Shown: positions 2,148 through 59,051, counted from the stretch's first letter. The stretch is DNA of 64,000 bases from Candidatus Harrisonbacteria bacterium (GCA_016192685.1 JACPTS010000003.1:15119-79118), one strand, 5' to 3'. The notes: generated by a model from the letters alone, not told the origin. Made by a program: numbers and translations.

Positions 2148-2837
2148 TTGGCTTTGACTGAATGTCCGATTTGTATCCAATATACCGACCGACCAGCTGA
2201 AATTATTGCCCATCAAGTTTTAGCTTGGATTGCGGAGAAAGAAGAATTTTGGCGGCTGGTCCATGTAACACCAAATAGCACCAGAGATACTAAAGGAAAG
2301 GATTTTTTTATTGTTCCAGAAAAGGGAAGTAGGTTTTGTCTTCCTCTCCAAATTAAATCCATCCGTATTCTGGAAAGCAAAAAATTAAAAATTAAGTTGG
2401 AACGAATGCGTAAAGAACCGGATAAAAACAAACCGCAAAGAATAAAAAGAAATTGGGAAGAAAGGTTTAAAAACCCCGCTAAATTGAAAAAATATTTACG
2501 GCAAGTTATCGCGGATTACGCCAAATTAGATTTAATTGTTAATGACCAAGAGATTAAAAAAGGTTTTGAATCAGCGACACGCCGATTGAATTTGGAACAG
2601 ATTTTAAATGAAGAAGCCGGCGGTCAGGAGATTTATCAAGTGTATGGCGAAATTGAATATTTTATAGATGCCTTTGCCAAAGCTATTCGGCACGCTGAAT
2701 TACACCCAAGCGTTAAGGTGCTTCTATTTGTGGATACCAGCGAAGACTCTGATTTAGAAAAACAAATCCCTGGCTTAAAAGAAATTTGGCTACCGCTAAT
2801 TAAAAAGGCGGTAAATTTAGAAAAAGGTCCTAAATAG
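2148..2837 (+). CDS. hypothetical protein (229 aa), Lys-rich middle region
   Basis: Long ORF in the dense + strand context with no recognisable motif. The terminator hairpin overlaps its stop codon. Confidence 0.45.
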   Translation: MALTECPICIQYTDRPAEIIAHQVLAWIAEKEEFWRLVHVTPNSTRDTKGKDFFIVPEKGSRFCLPLQIKSIRILESKKLKIKLERMRKEPDKNKPQRIKRNWEERFKNPAKLKKYLRQVIADYAKLDLIVNDQEIKKGFESATRRLNLEQILNEEAGGQEIYQVYGEIEYFIDAFAKAIRHAELHPSVKVLLFVDTSEDSDLEKQIPGLKEIWLPLIKKAVNLEKGPK

Positions 2838-2846
2838 GACTTTTTT
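2821..2846 (+). terminator. intrinsic terminator hairpin containing a GTCCTA-AA-TAGGAC inverted repeat
   Basis: aaaaaggtccta-aa-taggactttttt is a near-perfect 11-bp stem with a T-run. The stem carries the GTCCTA/TAGGAC motif that recurs elsewhere in the window. Confidence 0.5.
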
Positions 2847-2849
2847 ATT

Positions 2850-2878
2850 TTGACATTTTTTATCCCCCCGACTATATT
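2850..2878 (+). promoter_or_regulatory. sigma70-type promoter (TTGACA, 17-bp spacer, TATATT) for the clan-CD peptidase gene
   Basis: Consensus -35 TTGACA at 2850-2855, exact 17-bp spacer, -10 TATATT at 2873-2878. Confidence 0.55.
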
Positions 2879-2893
2879 TTTAGAAAACGCACT

Positions 2894-3685
2894 TTGACAG
2901 CTAAAAACGTGAAAGCAATAATTCTTGTTTTTGACCAGCCGGAAAGAAAAATAGGTTCTATGTCAGAATTTTGCTATTGCATCAAGAATAGCTCTGTTTC
3001 AAAAGCTGAAAAACTGCTTGGGTATTTAAAAGACGTCCGTTTGCTGCCGGATGATAATGTTTCTCTTTTAAAGAGCTCTTTTTTTGATAATGCCCGCCAG
3101 CTTTTACAGGAATTGCGGATGCTTGTTCAGCGGCGCAAAGATGAAGATTTGCTGTTTTATTATAATGGCCATGGCCAAAGAGGCGGCTGGAATCTCGGAG
3201 AAAATAAATTGGGCTACGGAGATAAAGTAATTCATTATTCGGAATTGGAGGATATTTTCAAGGATTTTAACGAAAAATTGATTTTTTTCAATGAATGCTG
3301 TTACGGGCTTTCTTTGAATCCATATTTGAGCAAGGCGATTTTGGGCAGGTATCTTTTGCTCAGCGGTTCAAGAAATCGCTGCGTCAGTTTTTGTAATCAA
3401 AGCATTTTAGACGTAACTCTTTCATCGTGGGAACATAGAAAGATTGCCAGGCCGAAAGTTTATTTTACAATGATTAACGATAAAAAAGATTCTTTGCTGG
3501 ACAGTGTAACCCCTACCAGAAATCCTTTGGCGGAAAATGTAGTTTTGCGACCTTGCGTAGCGCGATGCGGCACGGGCTGTTTGGCGGAAGGAATAAATTG
3601 GTCGGTTCAGAAAATTTTTTCCAATCCCAGGCCGTCTTTGCGAAGAGGCAGTGATTTAGATTATCTTATGTATCCGCCAATTTAA
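2894..3685 (+). CDS. clan CD (caspase/legumain-like) cysteine peptidase-domain protein, paralog A
   Basis: Putative catalytic dyad: His in YYNGHGQRGGW, Cys in FFNECCYG, 42 residues apart (caspase/legumain-like spacing). Shares these motifs and the C-terminal RRGsDLDYLmYP motif with the ORF at 7121-7702. The start is ambiguous (TTG 2894, GTG 2912 or ATG 2960). Confidence 0.5.
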   Translation: MTAKNVKAIILVFDQPERKIGSMSEFCYCIKNSSVSKAEKLLGYLKDVRLLPDDNVSLLKSSFFDNARQLLQELRMLVQRRKDEDLLFYYNGHGQRGGWNLGENKLGYGDKVIHYSELEDIFKDFNEKLIFFNECCYGLSLNPYLSKAILGRYLLLSGSRNRCVSFCNQSILDVTLSSWEHRKIARPKVYFTMINDKKDSLLDSVTPTRNPLAENVVLRPCVARCGTGCLAEGINWSVQKIFSNPRPSLRRGSDLDYLMYPPI

Positions 3686-3712
3686 AGCCGCAAGGCTTTT
3701 TTTGTTTGTTAC
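3686..3712 (+). terminator. weak intrinsic terminator (AGCC-gcaa-GGCT + T7)
   Basis: Short stem-loop followed by a TTTTTTT run. Confidence 0.3.
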
Positions 3713-3747
3713 CAAAATTATTGAACAGCGGTTTTAATTTATTAGAT

Positions 3748-3774: not shown

Positions 3775-3797
3775 GTCGGGTAAAATAATAGTTAAAT

Positions 3798-4094
3798 TTG
3801 TATATGAATCTTAAACCATTAAACGACCACATCTTCCTGGAACCGCTGGAGGAAGAAAAAATTACTAAATCCGGCATTGTTTTGCCGGAAACAGCGGAAA
3901 AAGAAAAGCCAATTAAAGGCCGGGTGGTCGCCGTTGGCCCCGGAAAATTGGATGAAAAAGGGAAACGGGTGCCGATGTCGGTAAAAGTCGGAGATAAGGT
4001 TTTATTTAAAAAATACGGTCCTGACGAGCTGGAAGTGGACGGCAAAAAATATTTAGTCGGGGAGGAAGGGGATATTTTGGCGATTATTAACTAA
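3798..4094 (+). CDS. groES: co-chaperonin GroES
   Basis: Size 98 aa. Start MNLKPLNDHIFLEPLEEE and a mobile-loop region typical of the family. Immediately upstream of groEL. Confidence 0.95.
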   Translation: MYMNLKPLNDHIFLEPLEEEKITKSGIVLPETAEKEKPIKGRVVAVGPGKLDEKGKRVPMSVKVGDKVLFKKYGPDELEVDGKKYLVGEEGDILAIIN

Positions 4095-4135
4095 TGACAC
4101 ATGACTGACTACAAAAAACAACAAACAACATTTTT

Positions 4136-6304: not shown

Positions 6305-6317
6305 TCATTTATTTTCT

Positions 6318-7728: not shown

Positions 7729-7773
7729 TTTAAAACGTTTATTCTATAAGCAGTTTCTTAAAAGGAGGAAAAT

Positions 7774-8697
7774 ATGGATAATGAAAAATTGCCGGAACAG
7801 ATTCAAAATAAAGAAAAAAAGACGCTCCGCCCAGTAAATCCGGGAGCAGAAAAATGGCTGAATCGTCCGGTTAAGTGCTTAGATCATGGGTTTGTTTATT
7901 TAGTGGATTATTTAGGAGATGATTCGGCTATTGCTCAAGCTGCCCGGGTTTCTTACGGCCAGGGAACTAAGAAAGTTAGCGAGGACAGGGGATTAATCAG
8001 ATATTTGATGAGGCATCGGCACACCACTCCTTTTGAAATGTGTGAGCTGAAATTTCACTGCAAAATGCCGATTTTTGTGGCACGGCAATGGATTCGGCAC
8101 CGGACTGCCAATGTGAATGAATATTCCGGCCGCTATTCGGAAATGTCGGACGAGTTTTATCTTCCAAACTCCGCTGTATTAAGAAAGCAATCACAAGGCA
8201 ATAAGCAGGGTCGGAGCGAAGAAAAATTAACTTCCGAACAGCAAGCGAAAGTGCTCCAGCTATTTAAAGAGGATTATGAGCGCCAATATAAAAATTATCA
8301 GGAGTCTCTTAATTTGGGTTTAACAAGGGAATTGGCTCGCATTGGGCTTTCAGTCGCGAATTATACCCAATGGTATTGGAAAATTGATTTACATAACCTT
8401 TTCCATTTCTTGAATCTTCGGCTGGATAACCATGCGCAGTATGAAATCCGCGTTTACGGCGAGGCAATGGCAAGGATTGTAAAAGACGCCTTCCCGCTGG
8501 CCTATGAAGCTTTTGAAGATTACCGGTTAAATGCAGGGAATTTTTCCGGTCCGGAATTAAAGCTGTTGAGATTGTTGGCTAAACGTTGGCCAATCGATAA
8601 AAGCAGCGCCAGAGAAATAGCCAGCATTAATTTTCGGAATAAAAGAGAAACCGAAGAATTCTTGAAAAAAATTGATATGCTTGGATTATTTGTTTAA
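7774..8697 (+). CDS. thyX: flavin-dependent thymidylate synthase ThyX
   Basis: ThyX signature RHRTANVNEYSGRYS (RHRxxxxxS). 307 aa. RBS AAGGAGG upstream. Confidence 0.9.
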   Translation: MDNEKLPEQIQNKEKKTLRPVNPGAEKWLNRPVKCLDHGFVYLVDYLGDDSAIAQAARVSYGQGTKKVSEDRGLIRYLMRHRHTTPFEMCELKFHCKMPIFVARQWIRHRTANVNEYSGRYSEMSDEFYLPNSAVLRKQSQGNKQGRSEEKLTSEQQAKVLQLFKEDYERQYKNYQESLNLGLTRELARIGLSVANYTQWYWKIDLHNLFHFLNLRLDNHAQYEIRVYGEAMARIVKDAFPLAYEAFEDYRLNAGNFSGPELKLLRLLAKRWPIDKSSAREIASINFRNKRETEEFLKKIDMLGLFV

Positions 8698-10659: not shown

Positions 10660-10748
10660 GGAGGGTTCGCATAGCGGTCTATTGCGCCTGCTTGGAGAGC
10701 AGGTTTCTCCGAAAGGGGATCGTGAGTTCAAATCTCACACCCTCCGCA
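10660..10748 (+). tRNA. tRNA-Ser (anticodon GGA), type II with long variable arm, CA 3' end
   Basis: Hand-folded cloverleaf. Acceptor stem GGAGGGT/ACCCTCC, 3-bp D stem, anticodon stem CCTGC/GCAGG with loop TTGGAGA, a 17-nt variable arm, and T arm GTGAG-TTCAAAT-CTCAC. Confidence 0.85.
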
Positions 10749-23093: not shown

Positions 23094-23123
23094 GATTTTG
23101 ATATAAGCCCTATTGGCCCAATT

Positions 23124-23141
23124 AGTCCTCTAGGTCCTATA
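23124..23141. repeat. TAGGTCCTA-type 9-bp motif cluster upstream of rpsJ (AGTCCTCTAGGTCCTATA)
   Basis: Member of the recurrent GTCCTA/TAGGAC motif family, about 5 bp before the rpsJ start. Confidence 0.45.
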
Positions 23142-23145
23142 TCTT

Positions 23146-23478
23146 ATGGCAATGGTAAAAAAAGACATTGAAAAAGAAAAATTAAGGTTAAGGATCAAGG
23201 CTTATGACCATAAGCTGATTGACAATTCTTGCCGCCAAATTATTGATACGGCAAAACGTCAAGACGCGGAAGTAATCGGCCCAACTCCTTTGCCAACCGA
23301 AATTCGAAAATACACGGTGAATCGCTCTACGTTTGTCCATAAAGATTCCCGCGAACAATTTGAGCTTCGGGTGCATAAAAGATTAATTGATATTTTGAAT
23401 CCGAATCAAAAAATCATTGAATCGCTTTCTGCCCTTAATTTACCTGCAGGTGTTGATATTGAAATTAAAATGGTGTAG
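23146..23478 (+). CDS. rpsJ: 30S ribosomal protein S10
   Basis: 110 aa with the conserved S10 core ([12 protein letters not shown] ... GPTPLPT). Confidence 0.95.
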
Positions 23479-23519
23479 AATCAATCAACATCATAAGGAA
23501 TTAGCCAAAATAAGATGAT

Positions 23520-23550
23520 AAAAAATCACAGGCTAAGCCTGTGATTTTTT
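23520..23550 (+). terminator. strong terminator/attenuator-like hairpin between rpsJ and rplC (AAAAAATCACAGGC-taa-GCCTGTGATTTTTT)
   Basis: Perfect 14-bp stem, 3-nt loop and a T6 run, inside what is normally one operon. Confidence 0.6.
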
Positions 23551-23559
23551 ATAAACAAT

Positions 23560-23982
23560 ATGGAAAAGGTTTTAGCAACAAAATTAAAAATGACTCAAAT
23601 TTGGAAAGGCGATGCCGTTGCGTCAGTCTCACCATTGAAATTGGCTGAAAGCGCCAAAATAGAAGAATTTAAAGAAGGGGACTTAGTGAAGGTGAGCGGC
23701 GTAACCAAAGGCCATGGTTTTCAGGGCGTTGTAAAAAGATATAGTTTTGCCGGCGGACCAAAAACTCACGGCCAGAAAAATCGCTACCGGGCTCCGGGTT
23801 CTATCGGCAATACTTCTCCGCAAAGAGTTGTTCCCGGCCGAAAAATGGCCGGCCGGATGGGAGGAAAGAAAAAAACCATTCGGAATTTAACAGTCATAGC
23901 GATTAATAAGGATCAAGGAACAATTTTAGTTAAAGGATCAGTTCCGGGAAATGCCGGCGGGAAATTAACTATTATTAAATAG
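23560..23982 (+). CDS. rplC: 50S ribosomal protein L3 (short form, 140 aa)
   Basis: Conserved L3 segments (GVTKGHGFQGVVKR, GQKNRYRAPGSIG). Shorter than the canonical protein. Confidence 0.85.
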   Translation: MEKVLATKLKMTQIWKGDAVASVSPLKLAESAKIEEFKEGDLVKVSGVTKGHGFQGVVKRYSFAGGPKTHGQKNRYRAPGSIGNTSPQRVVPGRKMAGRMGGKKKTIRNLTVIAINKDQGTILVKGSVPGNAGGKLTIIK

Positions 23983-23998
23983 GTCCTATAAGACTTAT
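23979..23998. repeat. ATAGGTCCTATAAGACTTAT motif immediately upstream of rplD
   Basis: Member of the recurrent GTCCTA/TAGGAC (TAAGTCCTA-type) motif family, ending 7 bp before the ATG. Confidence 0.5.
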
Positions 23999-24005
23999 AA
24001 AATTT

Positions 24006-24632
24006 ATGGAAAATATTAAAGTTTACAATCAGGATGGCAATGTAACCGGCGAAATGGAAGCGCCGCGATTTTTATCTTCCAAATGGAATGGCGCCTTAAT
24101 CCATCAGGTATTTAAAGCAATCGTCGCGAATAAACGGCATCCGATTGCCCATACTAAGGATCGCAGCGAAGTCAGCGGCGGCGGCATTAAGCCGTGGCGC
24201 CAAAAAGGGACTGGCCGGGCAAGGCAGGGTTCTATCCGTTCGCCGCTTTGGCGGCACGGAGGAATAACTTTTGGCCCGCGGAATACCACGGATTTTTCTC
24301 AAAAAATCAACCGGAAGATGCTGAAAAAGGCGCTTTGGGAAGTTTTAGCTAAAAAATATTCTTTAAATCAGCTGAAAGTAATTAAAGATTTAGAAGTTAA
24401 TCCAAAAACTAAAGAATTAAACCGGATAATAACTAATTTAGTCGGCCAAAAAACTGCCTTATTGGCCGTAAGCAGCGCCAATAAAAATGTTTTCCGGGCG
24501 GCTGGCAACCTTGCCAAAATCAAAGCTCTGCCGATCAAAAATCTAAGCGTTTACGATGTTTTAAATTACCAATATGTTTTGCTGGATCAGGCGGCGCTTA
24601 CGGAATTAACAAATAATTATGCCTCTAAATAA
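24006..24632 (+). CDS. rplD: 50S ribosomal protein L4
   Basis: 208 aa, L4 family, in operon order. Confidence 0.9.
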   Translation: MENIKVYNQDGNVTGEMEAPRFLSSKWNGALIHQVFKAIVANKRHPIAHTKDRSEVSGGGIKPWRQKGTGRARQGSIRSPLWRHGGITFGPRNTTDFSQKINRKMLKKALWEVLAKKYSLNQLKVIKDLEVNPKTKELNRIITNLVGQKTALLAVSSANKNVFRAAGNLAKIKALPIKNLSVYDVLNYQYVLLDQAALTELTNNYASK

Positions 24633-24903
24633 ATTTGCCGTTAAAAATCCAATCGTAACGGAAAAATCCACCGAATTAGGCAAAAACGGAAAGTATGTTT
24701 TTTTGATTGACAAAAATACTACCGCTTCCGAAGCAAAAAAAATAGTAGAGAATATTTATCAAGTAAAAGTTATCGGCACTAACGTTATTAATATTAAGAG
24801 CAAGAAACGCCGGCTGGGAAATTCAGTCGGCATTAAACCCGGTTATAAAAAGGTTATTATGACTTTCCAAAAGGGGCAAAAATTAGATATACTATCGCAG
24901 TAA
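24619..24903 (+). CDS. rplW: 50S ribosomal protein L23
   Basis: 94 aa, L23, overlapping the rplD end. Confidence 0.9.
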   Translation: MPLNKFAVKNPIVTEKSTELGKNGKYVFLIDKNTTASEAKKIVENIYQVKVIGTNVINIKSKKRRLGNSVGIKPGYKKVIMTFQKGQKLDILSQ

Positions 24904-24913
24904 TAAAATAAAT

Positions 24914-25738
24914 ATGAAGACTTATAAACCCACAACTCCATCGCGAAGACAATTGACTACCGTTGATTACGGTGTTTTAACCGCGGTAAAACCGATGAAA
25001 GCGCTGACGGCTAAATTAGCTTCGCGGGCCGGAAGAAATAATCAAGGCAGAATTACTATGAGGCATCAGGGAAGCGGCAATAAAAAAACTTACCGATTAG
25101 TTGATTTTAAGCAGGATAAAATCGGCATTCCCGGCAGAGTAAAAACAATTGAATATGACCCTTATCGGACTGCTTTTATCGCTCTGATAGTTTATAAAGA
25201 CGGGGAATGGCGGTATATTTTAGCTCCAAAAGATTTAACAATAGGCGCGGAAATTTTAACCGCCCAGCAGGCGCCGCTGGCTGTCGGCAATCGTTTGATT
25301 TTAAAGAATATTCCTATCGGTTATTTAGTTTATAATGTGGAATCTCATCCGAATAAAGGAGGCCAGCTGGCCCGTTCCGCCGGAGCTTATGCCGAAGTAT
25401 TGGGCCAGGAAGGAAATTATTCAATTTTAAAGCTTTCTTCCGGAGAAGTTCGCAAGGTTTTGTCCGACAGCTTTGCTTCTATCGGCCAAGTTTCTAATCC
25501 GGACTGGAATTTAGTGAATATCGGGAAAGCCGGGCGCTCCCGCTGGCTCGGCATTCGGCCAACAGTTCGCGGTAATGCCATGAATCCAGTGGATCATCCT
25601 CACGGCGGCGGAGAAGGCCGGCAGCCAAGAGGAACCAAGCGCCCTAAAGATATCTGGGGTAATATAACCGGAGGCCGCAAAACCAGAAATAAAAATAAAT
25701 GGTCAAATAAATTAATTATGCAGAGACGGCCAAAATAA
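24914..25738 (+). CDS. rplB: 50S ribosomal protein L2
   Basis: 274 aa with the conserved HPHGGGEG motif. Confidence 0.95.
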
Positions 25739-25739
25739 T

Positions 25740-26072
25740 ATGTCACGTTCAAGTAAAAAGGGTCCTTATGTTGACCCCAAATTATTGAAGAAAATTACTA
25801 AGGTGAAGCCGGACGGAAAAACGGTTATTAAAACCTGGTCCCGGGATTCCGAAATCGCGCCGGAAATGGTCGGCTATACTTTTGGCGTCCATAACGGGAA
25901 AAACTTTATAGAAGTATTAATCAAAGAAGAAATGGTCGGGCATCGCCTTGGAGAATTTTCTTTGACTAGAAAATTCCTTCGGCATGGCGGAAAAATGCAG
26001 AGAGAGCTGGAAACTACTGCCCAAACCAAAGCGGCTCCGCCCGGCGGAACAGCCACGCCACCCAAAAAATAA
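25740..26072 (+). CDS. rpsS: 30S ribosomal protein S19 (with C-terminal extension)
   Basis: S19 core ([12 protein letters not shown] ... VHNGK) plus a low-complexity 18-aa tail. Confidence 0.9.
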
Positions 26073-26090
26073 GTCCAACTAGTAAAATTT

Positions 26091-26588
26091 ATGACAAAAG
26101 TAACCGCAAAATTAAATTATTTGCACATAGCGCCGAGAAAAGTCCGGCTTATTGCCAATGCCCTGAAAGGACTATCCGTTAATGAGGCGGAGGCTCAGCT
26201 TTTATTCCGGCCGCAGCGTCCGGCAAAACCGCTTCTTGACCTTTTGCGTTCTGCCGCCGCCAGCGCTAAATATAACCATAAATTAAACCCGGATAAATTA
26301 ATAATTAGCAGCATTAAAGTAGATCAGGGGCCGATGATAAAAAGATCTCTGCCGCGGGCAATGGGCAGAGCAACGCCGCTCCAGAAAAAAATGAGCCATA
26401 TTTCCCTGATTTTAGAAGAAAAATCTCTGGTTAAATCGCCGCGTTTCAATATTGTAATTACAAAAAAAGAAAAAACGCCCAAAAAAGAAAGTAAAGCTGT
26501 TAAACCAAAAATAGGAGTGGCAAAGGTGGCGAAACCAAAAGAACAAGTTGGGTTTTTTAGAAAAATGTTTAACAGAAAAAGCGTATAA
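26091..26588 (+). CDS. rplV: 50S ribosomal protein L22 (with Lys-rich C-terminal extension)
   Basis: L22 core plus a K-rich extension. Confidence 0.9.
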   Translation: MTKVTAKLNYLHIAPRKVRLIANALKGLSVNEAEAQLLFRPQRPAKPLLDLLRSAAASAKYNHKLNPDKLIISSIKVDQGPMIKRSLPRAMGRATPLQKKMSHISLILEEKSLVKSPRFNIVITKKEKTPKKESKAVKPKIGVAKVAKPKEQVGFFRKMFNRKSV

Positions 26589-26591
26589 TTT

Positions 26592-27245
26592 ATGGGTCAT
26601 AAAATTCATCCAAATTCATACAGGACAGGCGTAACCAAAGATTGGAGCGCCCGGTGGTTCGCTAAGGATAATTTTGAAAACTTTTTAAAGGCAGATTTGG
26701 CAATCCGCAAAGTGATAAAAGAAAAAATCGGCGATGCCGGCATTGATAAAATAGATATTGAAAGAAGCGGGTCTCGTTGCCGTATTTCAATTAAGGCCGC
26801 TAAACCGGGTTTAATTATCGGCCGCGGCGGCAAGGGAATTGAAGAACTGACTAAAGCCATTGAAACTGCTCTTAAAAAATTATTCTCTAAAAGCAAAGTT
26901 TCTCTGCCGGGTATCAGTTTAAATGTGGAGGAATTAAAACGTTCTGATGTTTCCGCTTCGGTTACTGCCCAGCAACTTGCCTGGAATCTGGAAAAAAGGA
27001 TGCCTTTCCGTAGAACGATGAAAAAACAATTGGATTCCATAATGCAAAATAGAGGAGTGCAGGGGGCAAAGATTAAATTATCCGGCCGGCTGGACGGCAA
27101 TGAAATCGCAAGAAAAGAATGGCTGGCTAAAGGCCGGCTTCCGCTTACCACCCTGCGCGCCAACATTGATTATGGAGAGGCAACCGCTTTTAATAGTTAT
27201 GGAACCGTCGGAATAAAAGTGTGGATTTATAAAGGTGAGATTTAA
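26592..27245 (+). CDS. rpsC: 30S ribosomal protein S3
   Basis: KH domain and S3 C-terminal domain. 217 aa. Confidence 0.95.
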   Translation: MGHKIHPNSYRTGVTKDWSARWFAKDNFENFLKADLAIRKVIKEKIGDAGIDKIDIERSGSRCRISIKAAKPGLIIGRGGKGIEELTKAIETALKKLFSKSKVSLPGISLNVEELKRSDVSASVTAQQLAWNLEKRMPFRRTMKKQLDSIMQNRGVQGAKIKLSGRLDGNEIARKEWLAKGRLPLTTLRANIDYGEATAFNSYGTVGIKVWIYKGEI

Positions 27246-27263
27246 TAAGCCTTTATTAAAATT

Positions 27264-27423
27264 ATGTTAACTCCTAAAAAAATAAAACATCGCAAGTGGA
27301 CAAAAACTCTCGGAAACCCTCGGTTTTCCGACGTCGCTTCGCTCCTGCCTTCCGATACGGGAAAACCTACGTTTTCCCGCCCCCTTTCCTCCTTTTGCCA
27401 TTTTCAAGGTAAAACACTATAAT
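27264..27423 (+). other. diverged duplicate of the rplP 5' end (52-codon u[15 protein letters not shown]...) fused to GC-rich hairpins
   Basis: Starts 19 bp after the rpsC stop and encodes [12 protein letters not shown], identical to the L16 N-terminus but with different codons. It then diverges and contains a perfect 9-bp-stem hairpin CGGGAAAAC-ctac-GTTTTCCCG. Confidence 0.6.
27395..27423 (+). promoter_or_regulatory. internal promoter directly upstream of rplP (TTGCCA, 17-bp spacer, TATAAT)
   Basis: Near-consensus hexamers with exact spacing inside the ribosomal operon, 8 bp before the rplP ATG. Confidence 0.45.
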
Positions 27424-27431
27424 AAATCACT

Positions 27432-27845
27432 ATGCTTACCCCAAAAAAGATAAAACATAGAAAATGGCAAAAGGGCCGTTCAATAAACCGGAAAATTGAA
27501 ACGCGCGGCGCCACTCTTTCTTACGGCAGTTTTGGATTAAAAGCCCAATCCGGCGCCTGGATTAACAGCCGGCAGATTGAGGCTGCCCGCCGAGCCATCA
27601 GTAATTTTGTTAAAAGAGAAGGAAAGGTGTGGATCCGAATTTTCCCGGATAAGCCGATTACCCAAAAACCGCCGGAGGTTACTATGGGCGGCGGCAAGGG
27701 AGATGTTAAAGAATTTGTTTTTCCGGTCCGGCCGGGGAGGATTCTTTTTGAAATGGACGGCGTTGCTCCGGAGATTGCCAAAGAGGCTCTCCGTTTAGCG
27801 GGATTTAAACTGCCGATTAAAACCAAAATTATCATTAAAGAATAA
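27432..27845 (+). CDS. rplP: 50S ribosomal protein L16
   Basis: 137 aa with the conserved L16 N-terminus and core ([25 protein letters not shown]). Confidence 0.95.
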
Positions 27846-27846
27846 A

Positions 27847-28112
27847 GCGATGTCTAAACTAATATTATCACTAATTAACAAGAGCTATTTTATTTTAAAT
27901 CCAAGGCGCGACAACGAGCTTGTGGTTTTACCACAGCGAGGAGGAGCAACGAAGGAGTTAAATAAAATAGCCTTGCCCTTCGGGAGAATTGATTTTGACC
28001 AATTTCTGCGTTATTTCTCCTCGCAGTATGTTCATACAGCTTCGTCGAAAAGCCTTGAAATTGATACAAAATCAATTCTTTAATTTAGTAAGAATATTAG
28101 TTTAGACATCGC
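27847..28112. mobile_element. R3-family structured palindromic element (about 265 bp, MITE/ERIC-like) between rplP and rpmC
   Basis: 20-bp perfect terminal inverted repeats GCGATGTCTAAACTAATATT at 27847-27866 and 28093-28112. Internal arms are imperfectly complementary (GCGAGGAGGA/TCTCCTCGC, CAAGGCGCGACAACGAGCTTG/CAGCTTCGTCGAAAAGCCTTG). The central motif CCCTTCGGGA at 27976-27985 is shared with the copy at 38862-39128. A third, 16-bp copy of the terminal motif lies at 28299-28314. Confidence 0.65.
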
Positions 28113-28114
28113 AT

Positions 28115-28306
28115 ATGAAGAAAGATCTATTACAAAATTTGCGAGAGAAAAATAAAGATGAACTCTTGAAAGAGCTGCAGTCTTCAAAGGATAATTTGTG
28201 GCAATTACAGAGAGATTTAAAAAGAGGCAAGGTTAAAAATATCAAAGAAGCACGTAATCTGAAAAAGACCATCGCGGTCATTAATACTTTATTAAGTAAT
28301 GTCTAA
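28115..28306 (+). CDS. rpmC: 50S ribosomal protein L29
   Basis: 63 aa, helical, L29-like, in operon order. Confidence 0.85.
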   Translation: MKKDLLQNLREKNKDELLKELQSSKDNLWQLQRDLKRGKVKNIKEARNLKKTIAVINTLLSNV

Positions 28307-28314
28307 ACTAATAT
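28299..28314 (+). repeat. solo copy of the R3 terminal motif ATGTCTAAACTAATAT between rpmC and rpsQ
   Basis: 16/16 identity to the core of the element 1 inverted repeats. It overlaps the rpmC stop codon. Confidence 0.6.
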
Positions 28315-28317
28315 AAT

Positions 28318-28623
28318 ATGAGTATTTTAAATATCTTTACCAAAATATCTCCGGAGGAAAATTCCCAATCCCGAAATCAAAAAATATCCTCGCAGAACCG
28401 CAAGTTAAAAGGCGTGGTAGTTTCTAATAAAATGAAGAAGACCGTAGTGGTGGCAATTACCCGCTCAAAAAAACATTCCAAATATCAAAAATACTTCACG
28501 GTTACTAAAAGATTTAAGGCTCATGACGAAAAAAATGAATATCAAGTCGGGGATAAAGTAATCATTCAGGAAACCAGGCCAATAAGCAAGGAAAAGCGAT
28601 GGATAGTAATAAGTAAAATCTAA
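28318..28623 (+). CDS. rpsQ: 30S ribosomal protein S17 (N-terminally extended)
   Basis: S17 core ([16 protein letters not shown] ... KRWIVI). Confidence 0.9.
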
Positions 28624-28629
28624 ATTTGC

Positions 28630-28998
28630 ATGATTCAAGAACGTTCCATATTAAAAGTAGCTGATAATAGCGGCGCGAAAATCGTCCGATGTTTTAGAGT
28701 TTTGGGCGGAAGCCGGAAAAGATATGCCGAAATCGGCGACATTATTATCGCCTCTGTTCAAACAGCGGAACCAAGAAAGGCGGTAAAGAAAAAAGACGTT
28801 GTTAAGGCTTTAATAGTCAGGCAAAGAAAGGCTTTGCGCAGAAAAGACGGCTCCTATCTGCGTTTTGACGACAATGCCGTAGTTTTAATAGACGAAAAAG
28901 GAGAACCGAAAGCGACTAGAATTTTCGGGCCGCTGCCCCGGGAAATTAAAGACAAAAAATTTGAAACTATTTTCGGCATGGCCGAGGAAGTAGTATAA
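28630..28998 (+). CDS. rplN: 50S ribosomal protein L14
   Basis: 122 aa, start [17 protein letters not shown]. Confidence 0.95.
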
Positions 28999-29000
28999 AT

Positions 29001-29306
29001 ATGAAAATTCATAAAAACGACAATGTTCAAATAATGGCTGGTAAAGATAAGGGAAAACAGGGCAAAATTCTAAAAGTGGATATAAAATCCGGCAAAGTTC
29101 TGGTTCAGGGTTTAAATTTATATAAAAAACACCAGCGGCCGAAAAAACAGGGGGAAAAAGGCGAGATAATCTCCGTTGCCCGTCCGCTCAACTTTTCCAA
29201 TGTAATGCTTGTTTGTAATTCCTGCGCTAAACCGGTCAGAATCGGCTTTAAAATTGAAGGCGAAGATAAAATCCGCTATTGTAAAAAATGCAAATCCAAT
29301 CTATGA
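29001..29306 (+). CDS. rplX: 50S ribosomal protein L24 (with C-terminal CxxC...CxxC zinc ribbon)
   Basis: KOW motif near the N-terminus. The C-terminal CNSC ... CKKC is an unusual extension. Confidence 0.9.
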   Translation: MKIHKNDNVQIMAGKDKGKQGKILKVDIKSGKVLVQGLNLYKKHQRPKKQGEKGEIISVARPLNFSNVMLVCNSCAKPVRIGFKIEGEDKIRYCKKCKSNL

Positions 29307-29800
29307 CAAAAGATATGACAAAAGAAAAATACAAAAATTTAGAAAAAATAGTGGTAAATACCGGAGTTGGCCGGCTTTCCAGCCAGCCAAATTTTGAAGA
29401 GAAAATTCTTCCGGAAGTGATAAAAGAAATGAGTTTTCTTACTGGCCAAAAACCGGCCGTACGCCCGGCGAAAATTTCAATCGCGGGATTTAAACTAAGA
29501 AGCGGGACCGCTGTTGGATTAAAAACCACCTTGCGAAAACAAAGAATGGAGGAGTTTTTAAAAAAAGTTATCCGCGTAGTTTTGCCGCGGGTCAGAGATT
29601 TCCGCGGCTTAAAAAAAGAATCCGTGGATAAAAGCGGTAATTTGACTATTGGTTTAAAAGAATACTTGGTTTTCCCGGAAATAAATTCGGAGGTTGCTAA
29701 AACAAACTTCGGCCTGGAGATAACTATAGTGCCGAAATTAAAGAAAAAAGAAAAGGCGATGGAATTATATAAAGAATTAGGAATACCATTTAAAAAATAA
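29303..29800 (+). CDS. rplE: 50S ribosomal protein L5
   Basis: L5 family. The start was chosen at an ATGA overlap with the rplX stop (alternatives at 29288 and 29315). Confidence 0.88.
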   Translation: MTKDMTKEKYKNLEKIVVNTGVGRLSSQPNFEEKILPEVIKEMSFLTGQKPAVRPAKISIAGFKLRSGTAVGLKTTLRKQRMEEFLKKVIRVVLPRVRDFRGLKKESVDKSGNLTIGLKEYLVFPEINSEVAKTNFGLEITIVPKLKKKEKAMELYKELGIPFKK

Positions 29801-29812
29801 AAACTTAAGCGT

Positions 29813-29998
29813 ATGGCTAAAACATCCGTAGTGGCGCGAGCCCAAAAAAAACCAAAATTTTCTACCCGCATTGTCCGGCGCTGTTTTCGCTGCGGAAGAA
29901 AACGCGGCTACCTTAGGGATTTCGGCCTTTGCAGAATTTGTTTTCGGGAATTAGCTACTCACGGTGAAATTCCTGGGGTAAAAAAATCCAGTTGGTAA
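29813..29998 (+). CDS. rpsZ: 30S ribosomal protein S14 type Z (zinc-binding)
   Basis: 61 aa with CFRCGR ... CRIC. Confidence 0.9.
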
Positions 29999-30006
29999 CT
30001 TTTAAA

Positions 30007-30041
30007 TAAGTCCTGTAAGACCTATAGGACTAATAAGACTT
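30007..30041. repeat. tandem 9-bp motif array TAAGTCCTG-TAAGACCTA-TAGGACTAA-TAAGACTT abutting the rpsH ATG
   Basis: Member of the GTCCTA/TAGGAC motif family, ending at the start codon. Confidence 0.55.
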
Positions 30042-30422
30042 ATGTATTACGATCTATTAACCAAAATTAAAAACGCTCAAGCAGTTAAAAAAGAAAGTAT
30101 TAAAATTCCTTATACTAATATGGATTTTGCTATTGCCGAAATTCTTGCTAAACATAAATTCGTGGAAGAAGTTTTCAAAAAGGGGAGAATGCCCAAAAGA
30201 GTTTTGGATATAAAACTCAAATATCAAAACGGCCAAGGAAAAATCCTGGGAATTAAATTGCTTAGCAAACCGTCCAGAAAATTATTTGCCGGCTATAAAG
30301 ATATTAAACCGGTTCGGCAGGGGTATGGCTTGCTGGTTCTGTCTACTCCTAAAGGAATTATGGATGGCAAAAACGCCAAAAAAGAAAAAGTCGGCGGGCA
30401 ATTACTATTTGAAATCTGGTAA
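30042..30422 (+). CDS. rpsH: 30S ribosomal protein S8
   Basis: 126 aa, S8. Confidence 0.9.
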   Translation: MYYDLLTKIKNAQAVKKESIKIPYTNMDFAIAEILAKHKFVEEVFKKGRMPKRVLDIKLKYQNGQGKILGIKLLSKPSRKLFAGYKDIKPVRQGYGLLVLSTPKGIMDGKNAKKEKVGGQLLFEIW

Positions 30423-30423
30423 C

Positions 30424-30984
30424 ATGTCTAAAATAGGGAAAAAACCAATAGAAATCCCGGCAGGGGTAAATATAGAAATTAAAGATTCCCGCCTGGAAAT
30501 TAAGGGCAAGGAAGGAGCCTTATCTTTGTCAGTTTTACCATATACCAAAGTTGAATTAAAAAACAATCAAGTTTTGGTAATGGCGGAAGCTGACGAAAAA
30601 CAAGCCCGTTCTAATTGGGGAACAATGCGGGCGCTGGCCCAAAATGCCGTTCTCGGAGTCAGCGGCGGTTTTACTAAAGAATTAGAGATTCAAGGCATTG
30701 GCTATCGGGCGGCCGCCGAAGGCGCTAATTTAGTTTTGAATATCGGCTTTTCTCATCCGGTGAAATTTACGCCGCCAGCAGGAATAAAAATCAGCGTGGA
30801 AAAAAATCTTATTAAAGTTTCCGGGGTGGATAAAAATTTAGTCGGCGAAGTGGCGGCTAAAATCAGAGCTTTAAAAAAACCAGAGCCTTATAAAGGAAAG
30901 GGTATCAGGTATAAAGGCGAAGTAGTCAAAATTAAAGCCGGCAAAAAAGCAGTGAGCACAGCCGGCGCCGGAGCAGCGGCTTAA
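30424..30984 (+). CDS. rplF: 50S ribosomal protein L6
   Basis: Start MSKIGKKPIEIPAGV. The track ORF begins earlier inside rpsH. Confidence 0.9.
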   Translation: MSKIGKKPIEIPAGVNIEIKDSRLEIKGKEGALSLSVLPYTKVELKNNQVLVMAEADEKQARSNWGTMRALAQNAVLGVSGGFTKELEIQGIGYRAAAEGANLVLNIGFSHPVKFTPPAGIKISVEKNLIKVSGVDKNLVGEVAAKIRALKKPEPYKGKGIRYKGEVVKIKAGKKAVSTAGAGAAA

Positions 30985-30994
30985 AATTAAACTT

Positions 30995-31010
30995 GTAGGA
31001 CTTAAGACTT
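30995..31010. repeat. GTAGGACTTAAGACTT motif abutting the rplR ATG
   Basis: Partial member of the TAGGAC/TAAGACTT motif family. Confidence 0.4.
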
Positions 31011-48323: not shown

Positions 48324-49814
48324 TTATAAATAAATTATTTTAGCGCCCCCAGGAACTTCCTCAAGTTTCTCAGAAGAAATATAATAGATATTTTTTTCCT
48401 TTCGTTTTTTATCGGTAAAAGTATCGGTGAGAAAAAGGATTGTTTGGAGCGAAATCGGATTGTCGCGTTCAATTTTATCTTTTACATCGCTAACCACTAT
48501 ATATTTCGGCGTTTCTTTCGGCAAAGAATTTAAATATTGGGCAATTATTGAATCATTATAGGCAAAGGCGGGTTTTACATTAGAATTCTGGCCCCAAGTG
48601 ATGAAATAAGTTACGTAAGATTCAAACAGCAACAAACTACAAAATACATAGACAACAACTGACAACAAGCAACTACTTAATTTTGGTTTTAGAAATTCGT
48701 AAATTTTTAGACCTCCAATTGCGGCTAAAATAAAAACTGGCGGCACCGCAAGCAGAGAACGAAGCGCATGCGGCAGGCCTTCGTTAGAAACTACCACCGG
48801 AATTAAAGCGATGAAAAGCCAGATGAATAAAATTACAAATGGTAATTTTGGGAAGTCCGACCTCCTAGAATTATTATTTTCAATATTTGGGAGGTCAGAC
48901 TTCCTTAATATTGATTTAGCGCCTGAAATAATTCCGACTAAAAAGAAAATTCCGACCGGCCAGAAAAGCAGGGGGCGGCCGGCAACATTATGACGCCAGT
49001 TAAAATCGCCGAATACATTGAACATCCCTGTGGTTTTTAAAATATTAAGACCAAGATCACGAACCGGAGTTTCGGAATTAAAAATAGAAATGCTGGAAGT
49101 ACGTCCAAGAAAATCTTGAGGGTGGTTATAAAAATAAATTCCAAACGGCGCAATAGTAACAATAGCAGCAATCGCAAAAAACAAAAAAACTATTCTAATA
49201 TTCTTAAGAACATTAGAATAGTTTTTAAAATAGAAATAAACAATAAAAATTATAAGCAGGGGGGTGACGCGATAGGCGATATAAGAATGAAATCCGAGAC
49301 CATAGGTTAATCCTGCCAGAATTGACAAAAAATAAGACCAATAGGACTTATAAGATTTATATGAGAGTAATAGAAAATATAACGCCCAAATCAGGAAAAA
49401 CGGCGCCATGATGGCCCGAAAACCGATGCGGGAAAAATTAATGTGCCAAAAACTCGTAGCAAGCAAAAATGACGCTAAAAGCGCCATTTTTTTATCCGCA
49501 AAGAGTTCTTTAGTAAAAAGATATAACCCCCAAACCGTTAAAATGCCGAAAATGGCGCTCGGGAGCCTTAAAACCCAAGGTTCGTTGCCAAAAGCCGCTA
49601 TAAACAAACTTTGAATATTGATAAATAAGCCTTCCCTACCATGGTTTTCCGGATAAAAAACTTTCCAATCCCGATTTTCCCATGCCTCAACCGCGTTATT
49701 GCCGTTCATCGCTTCATCCGGATAAAGCCCCGGCGGTAATTCAGTGAAATTGTGAAGCCGCAGAAAGGAAGCTATAATTAGGATAATAACTAATAACCAA
49801 AGTTTTTTAAACAT
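48324..49814 (-). CDS. GT-C fold glycosyltransferase, ArnT/PMT-like (second paralog)
   Basis: LYPDEAMNGNNA loop-1 DE motif. 496 aa, multi-TM. Confidence 0.6.
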   Translation of the reverse strand: MFKKLWLLVIILIIASFLRLHNFTELPPGLYPDEAMNGNNAVEAWENRDWKVFYPENHGREGLFINIQSLFIAAFGNEPWVLRLPSAIFGILTVWGLYLFTKELFADKKMALLASFLLATSFWHINFSRIGFRAIMAPFFLIWALYFLLLSYKSYKSYWSYFLSILAGLTYGLGFHSYIAYRVTPLLIIFIVYFYFKNYSNVLKNIRIVFLFFAIAAIVTIAPFGIYFYNHPQDFLGRTSSISIFNSETPVRDLGLNILKTTGMFNVFGDFNWRHNVAGRPLLFWPVGIFFLVGIISGAKSILRKSDLPNIENNNSRRSDFPKLPFVILFIWLFIALIPVVVSNEGLPHALRSLLAVPPVFILAAIGGLKIYEFLKPKLSSCLLSVVVYVFCSLLLFESYVTYFITWGQNSNVKPAFAYNDSIIAQYLNSLPKETPKYIVVSDVKDKIERDNPISLQTILFLTDTFTDKKRKEKNIYYISSEKLEEVPGGAKIIYL

Positions 49815-55181: not shown

Positions 55182-55187
55182 AAAATT

Positions 55188-56342: not shown

Positions 56343-57765
56343 TAAATTAATCAAATTAATAAGTCCTATAAGTCCTATAGGACCTATTCGGGTCAGAATC
56401 GCGCCATCGCCGACCGGCTATTTGCATATTGGGACGGCCCGAACCGCTCTTTTTAACTGGCTTTTTGCCAAAAAACACGGCGGCAAATTTATTTTAAGAA
56501 TAGAAGACACTGACCTGGAAAGATCCGATAAAAAATACGAAAAAGACATTATAGATGGCTTGAGGTGGCTGGGATTGGATTGGGATGAAGGACCCCATCG
56601 GCAATCGGAACGATTAGCCATTTATGAAAAATATCTTCAAAACCTCCTAAGCGAAAACCAGGCTTACTATTGCGCCTGCACCAAGGAAACTTTGGAAAAA
56701 GAGCGGCAGCTTCAAATAAAGAAAGGGGAGGCGCCAAAATACAGCGGCAGATGCCGAAATTTTAAAATTGCTCCGGAACAGGGAGAAATTATCCGTTTTA
56801 AAATTCCGCCGGCGGAGAAAATCCAATTTCTGGATTTGATTCGCGGCCCGATTATTTTTGACAGCAGCTTAATCGGGGATTTGGCTATCGCCAAAAACTT
56901 ACAAACCCCTCTTTATAACTTCGCGGTTGTTATTGACGATTACGAAATGAAAATCAGCCACGTAATCCGCGGCGAAGACCACATTGCCAATACGCCCAAA
57001 CAGATTTTGCTCCAGCGAGCCCTAAACTTTCCGGAGCCAAAATACGCCCATCTGCCGCTGATTTTAGACCCGGACCGGAGCAAAATGTCCAAACGCTATT
57101 CGGCTACTTCCATCCAAGAATATAAAGAGCGAGGTTATTTGCCGGAAACTTTAGTAAATTTTATTGCTTTGCTTGGCTGGCATCCGGCCGATGACCAGGA
57201 AAAAATGGCGGCGTCGGAAATTATCCGAAAATTCAGCCTGGAAAGAATCCAAAAGGCCGGGGCGGTTTTTGACATCCAAAAACTCAACTGGCTGAACAGC
57301 CAATATTTAAAGGAAAAATCCGAATCCGAACTGTGGCAAAAAATAAAAGAGCTTTACGATAAAAAAATCAGTATTCAAAACGAGGCGGCTCTAAAATTAT
57401 TAAAAATAGGAAAATTGAGAATGTCAAAACTGGAAGATTTTCTTTCTTTGCAGGAATCTTTAACCTTACCGGATTATGACAGCAATTTATTATCTTGGAA
57501 AAATACTCATAAAGAAACAACTAAAGAAGCCTTGCGGCTGGCGCAAGAAGTAACCAGAACCATTCTCGTCCACGAATTTAATCAAAAAAATCTGGAAAAC
57601 CAACTTATGCCCCTAGCGGACAACCAAGGAAGGGGAGAGTTCCTGTGGCCTCTGCGAGTAGCCTTATCCGGAAAAGATAAATCACCCGGGCCATTTGAGC
57701 TGATGGAAGTATTGGGAAAAGAAGAATCGTTAAGAAGAATAAATATTGCTATTGAAAAATTATAA
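56335..57765 (+). CDS. gltX: glutamyl-tRNA synthetase
   Basis: RIAPSPTGYLHIG (HIGH) and KMSKR. The first about 17 codons are encoded by the tandem TAAGTCCTA repeat array, so the start is uncertain. Confidence 0.88.
   Translation: MFSKLIKLISPISPIGPIRVRIAPSPTGYLHIGTARTALFNWLFAKKHGGKFILRIEDTDLERSDKKYEKDIIDGLRWLGLDWDEGPHRQSERLAIYEKYLQNLLSENQAYYCACTKETLEKERQLQIKKGEAPKYSGRCRNFKIAPEQGEIIRFKIPPAEKIQFLDLIRGPIIFDSSLIGDLAIAKNLQTPLYNFAVVIDDYEMKISHVIRGEDHIANTPKQILLQRALNFPEPKYAHLPLILDPDRSKMSKRYSATSIQEYKERGYLPETLVNFIALLGWHPADDQEKMAASEIIRKFSLERIQKAGAVFDIQKLNWLNSQYLKEKSESELWQKIKELYDKKISIQNEAALKLLKIGKLRMSKLEDFLSLQESLTLPDYDSNLLSWKNTHKETTKEALRLAQEVTRTILVHEFNQKNLENQLMPLADNQGRGEFLWPLRVALSGKDKSPGPFELMEVLGKEESLRRINIAIEKL
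56360..56387. repeat. tandem 9-bp array TAAGTCCTA-TAAGTCCTA-TAGGACCTA containing the palindrome GTCCTATAGGAC (56372-56383)
   Basis: Perfect 12-bp palindrome within a 3-unit tandem repeat at the gltX 5' end. Confidence 0.7.
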
Positions 57766-57773
57766 ACTAAATT

Positions 57774-59051
57774 ATGAATAATAAGTCCTATAGGACCTAT
57801 AGAGCTTATAAGTCTTATGGGGCCTATCTAATAGCGTTTTTTCTTCTTCCGCTTTTTTCACTGGCGGCGGAAATTCCTCAAAATCTTAAAAACACTATTC
57901 AAGAAAAAACCCAGGCCCTGCAGGAAATAAACCAAAAAATCCTTCAAACCGAAAAAGAGCTGGAAGAAACCGAAGGCAAAAGCCTGACTTTGCAAAAAGA
58001 AATTAAGCAAAAAGAGCGGCAGCTAAGCCAATTAAACCTCAACATCAAAGCCGGTGAAATTACTATTGAGAGATTAAACCTGGAAATTGAATCTCTAAAA
58101 TACGATGTTACGGAAACCCGAACTAAAATCAGCGCCCAAAAAAACGGCATTGCTCAAATTTTAAAATCCATCCAACGGAGAGACAGCGAAAATACTCTGA
58201 CGGTTTTACTTAAAAATAGCAGTCTGGCGGAAAGCCTGGCCGAATTAGAAAATCTTTTAAATTTAAATGTCGGCCTTAGTGCCGGCGTCAATAAACTTAG
58301 TTTTCTTGATAAAAATTTATCCGACCAGCTTGGTTTAACTGCCAAAAAACAAACTGGGGTTATTTCAGAAAATAAAAATTTAAAAAACCGGCAATTAATC
58401 GCCGGTTCGGAAAAAAATGAACGCCAAAATCTGCTTACTCGGACTAAAAACCAAGAAAAATTGTATGCCGACCAACTAAAAGAGCTGAAAAAACTTCAGG
58501 CGGAAGTATCGGCGGAAGTGGAAAAAATAGAAGCCGAGCTGCGTTTAAAAATAGACCCGGCTCTTTTGCCAATTCCAAGGCCCGGCGTGCTTTCTTGGCC
58601 GATAACTATGAAAAATCAGGGCGGAACCGGCCGTTTAACCCAAAAATGGGGAATTCCTTCGCCGCTTTATGGAGGAAGAGCGCACAATGGCATAGACATC
58701 GGAGCTCCCATTGGAACGCCAATTTTTGCCGCGGGAAAAGGCAGGGTGGCGGAAGTCTGGAATCAAGACCGGTATTGCTATAAAGGCGCTTACGGCAAAT
58801 TTATCATTATTGAACATGAAAATAATCTCACTACTTTATATGCCCATTTATCTCTTCAGTCGGTAAAAAAAGGCGATTATGTGAACCAAGGAGACTTAAT
58901 CGGCTATGTCGGCCAAACCGGCTATGCTACCGGCCCGCATCTCCATTTCACCGTCTACGCAAGCCAAACTTTTATTCTCAAATCCAGCAAAGTCAATTGC
59001 GGCCCGATTATGCCATTTGGCGGCGATTTAGATCCGCTCCAGTACTTATAG
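57774..59051 (+). CDS. M23-family peptidase with N-terminal coiled coil (EnvC/LytM-like)
   Basis: HNGIDIGAPIGTPIFAAGKGRV and HLHF M23 motifs. Signal peptide after a repeat-encoded N-terminus. Confidence 0.8.
   Translation: MNNKSYRTYRAYKSYGAYLIAFFLLPLFSLAAEIPQNLKNTIQEKTQALQEINQKILQTEKELEETEGKSLTLQKEIKQKERQLSQLNLNIKAGEITIERLNLEIESLKYDVTETRTKISAQKNGIAQILKSIQRRDSENTLTVLLKNSSLAESLAELENLLNLNVGLSAGVNKLSFLDKNLSDQLGLTAKKQTGVISENKNLKNRQLIAGSEKNERQNLLTRTKNQEKLYADQLKELKKLQAEVSAEVEKIEAELRLKIDPALLPIPRPGVLSWPITMKNQGGTGRLTQKWGIPSPLYGGRAHNGIDIGAPIGTPIFAAGKGRVAEVWNQDRYCYKGAYGKFIIIEHENNLTTLYAHLSLQSVKKGDYVNQGDLIGYVGQTGYATGPHLHFTVYASQTFILKSSKVNCGPIMPFGGDLDPLQYL
57782..57828. repeat. TAAGTCCTA-type array containing GTCCTATAGGAC (57785-57796) at the 5' end of the M23 peptidase gene
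   Basis: ATAAGTCCTATAGGACCTATAGAGCTTATAAGTCTTATGGGGCCTAT, with the same units as at gltX, rpsH and rplD. Confidence 0.7.

Follow-up and report, generated by a model that had tools for sequence, protein, structure and literature searches.

Nonamer tandem repeats in a Harrisonbacteria genome region belong to a family that is found in many bacterial phyla and associated with a four-helix-bundle suffix gene

We analysed a 64 kb stretch of DNA from Candidatus Harrisonbacteria (Patescibacteria, within the candidate phyla radiation, CPR), hereafter called the window, about 91% of which is coding. A short palindromic motif recurs in this stretch, among other places in spacers between ribosomal-protein (r-protein) genes. 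We find that the motif represents solitary copies of a nonamer tandem repeat that is found in many bacterial phyla. In other genomes the array family is strongly and clade-specifically associated with a conserved Avd-like gene that encodes a four-helix-bundle (4HB) suffix protein. The explanation that we favour and consider probable is a repeat-gene system similar to that of the repetitive extragenic palindromes (REP) and their REP-associated tyrosine transposases (RAYT), in which the window arrays are solitary copies of an interspersed nonamer family.

The repeat unit is the 9-bp sequence TATA(R)G(W)C(Y), which occurs in the window in about 15-fold excess over expectation and is arranged in eight tandem arrays, as called by a two-unit profile scan. 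The consensus TATA-R-G-W-C-Y is dyad-symmetric, i.e. GWC-YTATAR-GWC, and the unit is open in four of its six reading frames. With up to two mismatches GTCCTATAGGAC occurs 10 times compared to 0.64 expected, a number that was reached in none of 100 shuffles. TARGWCCTA was observed 15 times (expected 0.85) and TAAGACTTATG, allowing one mismatch, six times (expected 0.91). An earlier annotation of the window, the sequence-only reading, had proposed a recurring palindromic motif, which these numbers confirm as real and non-random. Perfect palindromes are found at 56372 and 57785, and the copies keep a strict 9-bp register (period 9 in Tandem Repeats Finder, TRF). No further arrays were present in the 10 kb of sequence added on each side of the window.

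Four of the eight arrays are intergenic and four are coding despite the high coding density (P = 0.004). The intergenic arrays, identified by the array scan and from the sequence, lie in r-protein operon spacers: Four degenerate units (23104-23141, also compared with relatives) fill the 52-nt tuf-rpsJ spacer, two to three units (23980-24003) fill the rplC-rplD spacer with the rplC stop codon TAG within the first unit, four units (30007-30041) fill the rpsN-rpsH spacer and end at the rpsH ATG, and about two units, one of them truncated (30987-31010), are located between rplF and rplR. Each of these arrays occupies the entire spacer, with the ATG at one end and the upstream stop codon within 12 nt or inside the array at the other end. 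The description of the motif as abutting start codons is thus literally correct for the four operon arrays, but the same arrays equally abut or contain the upstream stop codon, as seen for the rplC TAG.

Two of the coding arrays are translated as N-terminal extensions, as had been proposed. The gltX array (56351-56387, three to four units, detected by TRF) provides the GltX extension LISPISPIGPI and contains the perfect palindrome GTCCTATAGGAC. The five units at 57773-57828 (TRF) form the charged N-terminal region KSYRTYRAYKSYGAY of the signal peptide of an M23 peptidase, ahead of its hydrophobic core. The other two in-gene arrays had been overlooked before. About four units (1669-1705; TRF period 9 with 3.7 copies, array scan) lie in frame in a nucleotidyltransferase-like open reading frame (ORF, 1440-2117) and are translated as YKSNESYKSY. 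Three units (49333-49362, found by the scan) lie in frame in a PMT-family glycosyltransferase encoded on the minus strand (48324-49814), where their translation SYKSYKSYWSY is placed in a loop. Relative to the flanking genes the reading frames of the window arrays are inconsistent.

Of the seven sites that the sequence-only reading had listed, six are in-register 9-bp arrays, mostly slightly longer than described. The seventh, 2827-2840, is out of register and is an ordinary intrinsic terminator. Here GGTCCT and AGGAC lie 10 nt apart, and an 11-bp stem is followed by a T-run. The complete terminator-like hairpin on the plus strand (2821-2846, AAAAAGGTCCT-AAAT-AGGACTTTTTT) has a folding free energy of -11.6 kcal/mol (z -3.07); its stem holds the half-site GTCCTA/TAGGAC outside the 9-bp register, and its loop contains the stop codon of the ORF 2148-2837. 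Two further single matches were seen in the r-protein region: The rplB start (24914-24928) reads ATGAAGACTTATAAA (MKTYK), a match to the repeat unit in the first codons, and a single unit ATAAGTCCA precedes the rplV start (26091) by about 20 nt.

The same repeat is widely distributed. An exact 18-mer scan over one genome per species (596 Gb) gave at least 119 loci, a count that by itself is uninformative given about 70 matches expected by chance. However, 100 of the 119 listed matches extend to 3-20 in-register units. The hosts include Acidobacteriota, Planctomycetota, Verrucomicrobiota, Bacteroidota, Chlorobi, Cloacimonadota, Nitrospirota, Desulfobacterota and several CPR groups, cultured isolates among them. 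The profile of about 670 units (in percent T79 A98 T97 A86, G61/A32, G94, A50/T47, C95, C61/T33) is again dyad-symmetric. With the crude greedy-ORF method applied to these foreign loci, 90 arrays (about 60%) were classified as intergenic at a median distance of 9 nt from 3' ends and 25 nt from 5' ends, and 57 (about 40%) as lying within ORFs, in frame and with an N-terminal bias. The in-ORF arrays are translated as I(S/G)(P/L) in 27 cases and as Y(K/R)(S/T) in 25 cases. The orientation of the units with respect to neighbouring or host genes was unbiased across phyla (25:19 relative to the downstream gene; 34:37 and 26:24 in the other counts). Selection for a peptide (KSY or collagen-like GPI) was ruled out, since both open frames are equally used and most arrays are non-coding.

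An all-against-all ORF comparison of the array-seeded loci revealed a protein of about 190 amino acids that is encoded in 7 of the 119 listed loci and always adjoins arrays. In four of these loci (L079, L100, L038, L071) the arrays bracket the gene. Since this first sample had been selected by its arrays, a second sample of 80 metagenome loci was drawn by protein similarity alone. Arrays of at least three units of the TATARGWCY nonamer, which we label type T1, were found in the immediate flanks of the gene in 29 of the 80 loci. The array density in the flanks was 1.5 per kb compared to 0.019 per kb in the remainder of these loci, i.e. about 80-fold higher. The remaining loci carry variant units with a 9-bp periodicity (ATGNGWCC, ATGGGAW/WTCCCAT, TTTGTGTCC); a sequence-agnostic test for self-identity at a lag of 9 with a 72% threshold was too strict for these degenerate variant arrays. 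The unit type follows the protein clade: In the I(I/L)PPRGDY clade ATGGGAW-type flanks were found in 12 of 12 loci and T1 in 0 of 12, and T1 is confined to the FIPPHG(N/G)Y clades.

A single complete replicon of a cultured isolate connects the array at the gene with solitary arrays. In Prevotella nigrescens (NZ_CP082843.1) a 9-bp array of CCTAGG type comes after a gene annotated as 'four helix bundle suffix domain-containing protein' (WP_004367454.1). This would be the cognate type for the protein, and TATAGGACC a non-cognate one. Within positions 1-300000 (L227-L232) the strongly avoided tetranucleotide CTAG occurs 28 times, 17 of which fall into four arrays where they are spaced by exactly 9 bp. 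The 4HB-suffix gene has one of these arrays next to it, and the other three are solitary in spacers. Neither arrays at other periods nor T1 arrays were seen in these 300 kb, and BLAST returned no other plasmid record with the CTAG-type unit. Within this genome, solitary arrays thus match the type that flanks its own gene. In the literature that we searched with DNA and peptide strings, nonamer wordings and TIGR04258, no description of the nonamer arrays or of their link to the gene was found.

Several further features were noticed at the gene. A gene resembling hsdM, the methylase of type I restriction-modification systems, lies directly upstream of it in 10 of the 80 loci (among them L159, L167, L170 and L171); all of the inspected loci of this kind belong to the ATGGGAW-type clade. 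In this clade (L153, L163 and relatives) each flank forms a long hairpin with a nonamer array as either arm, (ATGGGAAGA)n - spacer - (TCTTCCCAT)n, and translation of the 5' hairpin yields an N-terminal extension (MRKNGINGIN...HSSHNSH). L071 contains at 944-1451 an internally deleted 4HB-suffix gene (121 amino acids, helix 1 fused to the suffix domain) with four arrays around it, which looks like a decaying cassette.

The array-flanked protein scores above the curated cut-offs of TIGR02436 (four helix bundle protein; 27-34 bits, cut-off 24) and of TIGR04258 (4-helix suffix domain; 68-89 bits, cut-off 40), and Pfam PF05635 is found on 119 of 120 listed homologs. An AlphaFold model is all-helical (pLDDT 79). 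Together with the profiles its fold places the protein in the 4HB/Avd family, with Avd of diversity-generating retroelements (DGR; 8ub7), which is a pentamer, and BT_0352 (2rld) as the Foldseek matches of best probability, the E-values of which are not significant. A profile search of PDB sequences gave no match. The PF05635/TIGR02436 family is uncharacterised; its members have been described as DGR Avd and in the intervening sequences of 23S rRNA, CPR included, and are known as passengers of small insertions (PMC10053308; bioRxiv 10.1101/2024.02.27.582315). The array-flanked protein differs from them by the additional TIGR04258 domain, by the absence of an adjacent reverse transcriptase, by a location outside rRNA and by the nonamer arrays themselves, which in the searched literature are undescribed for this family.

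Protein identities of 80-100% were found across Planctomycetales, Kapabacteria and Caldilinea (Chloroflexota) at nucleotide identities of 72-74%. Such conservation points to strong constraint on a gene that has crossed phylum boundaries, and the high protein identity across phyla fits a horizontal spread of the cassette. Carriage by phages or plasmids was ruled out: We found no phage records, one chromosome-like 'plasmid' record and one among 2.9 million viral contigs.

To see how stable the arrays are, we compared the window to its relatives. Six strain-level contigs (L001-L006) are 100% identical to the window, and copy-number dynamics are thus not visible in them. In a phase-variable simple sequence repeat (contingency locus) strains would differ in repeat number, with a switch of expression or frame as the consequence; here a 9-bp unit cannot shift a reading frame, and differences in unit number are seen at the level of species. 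The closest different genome, represented by L138 for the r-protein region and by L135, shows identities of 96% for RpsC and 84% for GltX and a nucleotide identity of about 82-92% (about 88-92% for L138 alone). In L138 none of the rpsJ, rplD, rpsH and rplR spacers contains a nonamer array. Its rplC-rplD spacer has 7 nt, and its tuf-rpsJ spacer, which is 5 nt long in L139, carries at 1094-1166 another palindromic array that is made of 7-mers, (GCGTAGG)x4 ... (CCTACGG)x4. The latter suggests that other families of short tandem-palindromic repeats share the spacer niche. At the rpsH site no unit is found in L139, one in L140 (TAA-ATAAGACCT-ATG) and four in the window, and L138 has an unrelated element with terminal inverted repeats (TIR). 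At the rplR site no array is present in L138 and L139, and about two units in L141 (14046-14073). Additional junctions are used in other CPR genomes: L140 carries a four-unit array between rplN and rplX (3817-3852), where the window spacer has 2 nt, and the Portnoybacteria contig L073 has one between rpsC and rplP (3161-3187), in comparison with the window arrays at 23104-31010.

A similar picture was obtained for the in-gene arrays. The M23 and PMT sites are empty in L135 and also in L137. For gltX a decayed remnant is left in L135 (ATAAGACCA ATCAGCCCC ATCAGG), the array is missing from other homologs, and a repeat-like N-terminal insert occurs in 2 of 120 GltX homologs. Since the orthologous spacers of the close relative lack the arrays and the used junctions differ between relatives, we conclude that the arrays are labile insertions or expansions rather than conserved operators. 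The comparison in relatives that had been proposed as a check found the arrays absent from orthologous positions of the closest relative. Paired arrays as junctions of recombination or horizontal gene transfer were ruled out, as all regions show a uniform divergence from L138 as well as from L135.

The TIR element deserves a separate remark. A version of about 260 bp lies in the window at 27846-28114 between rplP and rpmC, with perfect 20-bp TIRs (GCGATGTCTAAACTAATATT / AATATTAGTTTAGACATCGC) and a 77-amino-acid ORF of no known family. In L138 the rplP-rpmC spacer is empty (5 nt), and a homologous element (7748-8016, TIR ATGACCTCTAAA, 85-amino-acid ORF) is found between rpsN and rpsH, exactly where the window has its four-unit array. 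This tiny element appears to hop between r-protein operon spacers.

The arrays turn over rapidly, by gain, expansion and loss, and are retained only at places where they cause little harm. Permissive sites are intercistronic spacers of a few nucleotides and, if the array is in frame, N-terminal tails and protein loops. The shortness of these spacers is the reason why the arrays are in contact with the stop codon as well as the start codon. The sequence-only reading had offered a translational operator, a site for a dimeric DNA-binding protein or a short satellite with an insertion preference for initiation regions. The satellite comes closest, with its preference better read as survival at permissive sites. 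By analogy to REPIN-RAYT systems (REPINs being paired REP sequences), the 4HB-suffix protein, or a process tied to it, may recognise its own nonamer, and this recognition would seed or maintain arrays elsewhere in the genome. Replication slippage would change the unit number locally, and the decay of cassettes, as in L071, may leave solitary arrays behind. A DNA-binding site that acts via the 4HB protein is a possible role, because the unit is dyad-symmetric and the candidate protein is array-flanked in other genomes. In its wider form, i.e. an undescribed repeat-gene system that has spread horizontally across at least 10 phyla including CPR and whose non-HUH 4HB protein binds the clade-specific unit and drives or maintains its dispersal, the idea is tentative, and we would rather doubt than assert it.

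A number of observations weigh against the REP/RAYT-like explanation. Among the array-seeded loci the gene was found in only the seven mentioned above. No 4HB-family gene was found in the window, in the 20 kb of extra flank (84 kb in total) or in about 100 kb from relatives. The co-variation of protein clade and unit could be simple co-inheritance of the gene with its flanks. Neither a nuclease nor a transposase motif can be recognised in the protein, so that no transposition chemistry can be named, and the 80 protein-selected loci revealed no conserved enzymatic partner gene. The ORF calls in the foreign loci are crude. Finally, arrays of CPR genomes recur in spacers of the S10/spc operons at junctions that differ per genome, a concentration that would not be obviously expected under a purely neutral model.

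Among the rival explanations a regulon operator survives best. Here the 4HB-suffix protein or another dimeric DNA-binding protein, as a regulator of transcription or of the nucleoid, would regulate its own gene via the flanking arrays and control other genes via the solitary ones. The dyad symmetry, the clade-specific unit around the gene and the positions near gene ends are what such an operator would look like. However, many arrays lie in convergent 3'/3' spacers or in coding sequence, the arrays change quickly from one close relative to another, a search near the window gave no cognate gene, and there is no overlap of arrays with promoter-like sites. We consider this explanation unlikely. 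Independent of it, a promoter or terminator role of the arrays was ruled out, as none overlaps a promoter- or terminator-like consensus site.

Slippage alone, acting on seeds such as ...ATAAG...CTTATG at stop/start junctions, could also produce arrays as an autonomous microsatellite that needs no trans-acting factor and is only incidentally linked to the 4HB gene. A unit number that differs between species at one site (0, 1 or 4 at rpsH), an array-free site in L138 that already resembles one unit (AAATAAGTTTAATATG) and bare repeats without conserved flanks are in agreement with this idea. Yet the AT-rich nonamer is also found in genomes of 55-64% GC, where seeds should be rare. Likewise, the 80-fold enrichment at one gene family, the clade-specific units and the P. 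nigrescens arrays, which are built of the otherwise avoided CTAG, speak against slippage alone, for which little probability remains.

Before considering roles at the RNA level we note how the window arrays behave as RNA. At gathering thresholds Rfam gave only two tRNAs and no array match in the window and nine array-rich loci; tRNA genes of the window lie at 10660-10746 and 60735-60805. The folds of the operon arrays are not unusual compared to shuffled sequences (z +0.67 to -1.75). Since reading frames are used equally, orientation is unbiased, Rfam has no match and the folds are mostly like those of shuffles, we conclude that the nonamer arrays are a DNA-level element, neither a peptide motif nor an mRNA signal. 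The changed 5' leaders and new N-termini in the window are probably by-products and not regulatory design.

If the arrays acted as hairpins in polycistronic transcripts, they might serve as RNase III sites or 3' stabilisers, comparable to REP hairpins or to the 23S rRNA intervening sequences in which the related ORF is found. Such a function in RNA processing or stability would be favoured by the long perfect palindromes with mirrored variants that some arrays form (L041, L055, L093), by the related PF05635 ORFs that reside in rRNA intervening sequences, CPR included, and by the folds of the M23 and PMT arrays, which are somewhat better than those of shuffled sequences (z -2.2 and -2.5). It is nonetheless improbable, given that the array type seen most often, (TATAAGTCC)n, lacks self-complementarity and that for four of the eight arrays of the window the fold does not exceed that of shuffled sequences.

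The weakest rival is a translational operator or initiation enhancer that is read on the mRNA at starts and tunes the translation of r-proteins, gltX and secreted peptidases in a genome poor in Shine-Dalgarno sequences, which most window genes lack: Four arrays reach an ATG or come within a few nucleotides of it, two form N-termini, and the CPR relatives L140, L141 and L073 also have units just before r-protein starts, but all four orthologous spacers of L138 are without an array, other relatives use other junctions, arrays are as common at 3' ends and in ORFs, orientation relative to the downstream gene is unbiased (25:19), Rfam has no family for them and they fold like shuffles, which leaves this proposal very improbable. 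The tempting model of r-protein regulation in the window thereby loses support. The known autogenous r-protein operators (S10, spc and alpha leaders) are structured, strand-specific, rRNA-mimicking RNAs that are conserved in relatives. The arrays share with them the position just upstream of r-protein cistrons, and none of the other properties, neither orthologous conservation nor a strand-specific rRNA mimic, was found here.

Of the known repeats, the REP/REPIN-RAYT systems come closest, which combine short symmetric intergenic repeats with a small gene that is flanked by its own repeats (PMC3337134). Similar to these, the nonamers are symmetric and scattered, the gene has its own flanking repeats with one repeat type per gene clade, and solitary repeats are far more numerous than gene-associated ones; the flanking of a cognate gene by its own type is a finding from other genomes than that of the window. 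The differences are equally clear: A tandem 9-bp nonamer takes the place of a 20-40-bp extragenic hairpin with a GTAG head, arrays occur in frame in coding sequence whereas REP are strictly extragenic, the protein is an Avd-like 4HB without the motifs of an HUH/Y1 (IS200-like) transposase, and one repeat type is common to several phyla.

Other repeats share single features. Mycobacterial interspersed repetitive units (MIRU) are, like the window arrays, tandem repeats in intercistronic operon spacers that touch the flanking stop and start codons. Their units, however, are reportedly 46-101 bp long, oriented with translation, provided with small coupling ORFs and restricted to a genus, in contrast to the 9-bp, orientation-free and pan-phylum units described here. 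Rickettsia palindromic elements, single elements of 100-150 bp confined to Rickettsia, are likewise selfish repeats tolerated in frame in genes and between genes; they are not tandem nonamers and are not known to have a cognate gene. The octamer palindrome HIP1 of cyanobacteria, the function of which is unknown, is also very short and over-represented throughout a large clade, in coding as well as in non-coding DNA, but it is dispersed as single copies without fixed-period arrays and without a flanked cognate gene. DNA uptake sequences (DUS/USS) would appear as single 9-12-mers about once per kb with inverted pairs at terminators. The window units are instead clustered in eight arrays per 64 kb with none in the further 20 kb, and only the non-array site 2827-2840 is terminator-like.

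If the link between arrays and gene holds, the nonamers would constitute a new class of bacterial interspersed repeat, with tandem units that are tolerated in frame and common to many phyla, paired with one of the commonest uncharacterised small gene families (PF05635/Avd-like). Binding and function of the non-DGR members of this family would then become directly testable. If the wider form of the repeat-gene idea were correct, the nonamers would represent the first defined nucleic-acid partner for the very large PF05635/23S intervening-sequence family outside DGRs. The arrays are moreover a hazard for annotation, as they produce spurious N-terminal extensions, low-complexity peptides (SYKSYKSY, PIGPIGPI, IGLIGLIG) and false small ORFs, with a reach that includes signal peptides and the adenylation domains of nonribosomal peptide synthetases. 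Such domains from Aminicenantes/Acidobacteriota (L027, L054/L078, L095) contain the in-frame arrays SYKSYRTY, SYKSYRSYRTY and SYKSYKTY in the variable loop that separates the ELTAEKF motif from the YKTGDL motif, and illustrate low-complexity inserts in large enzymes.

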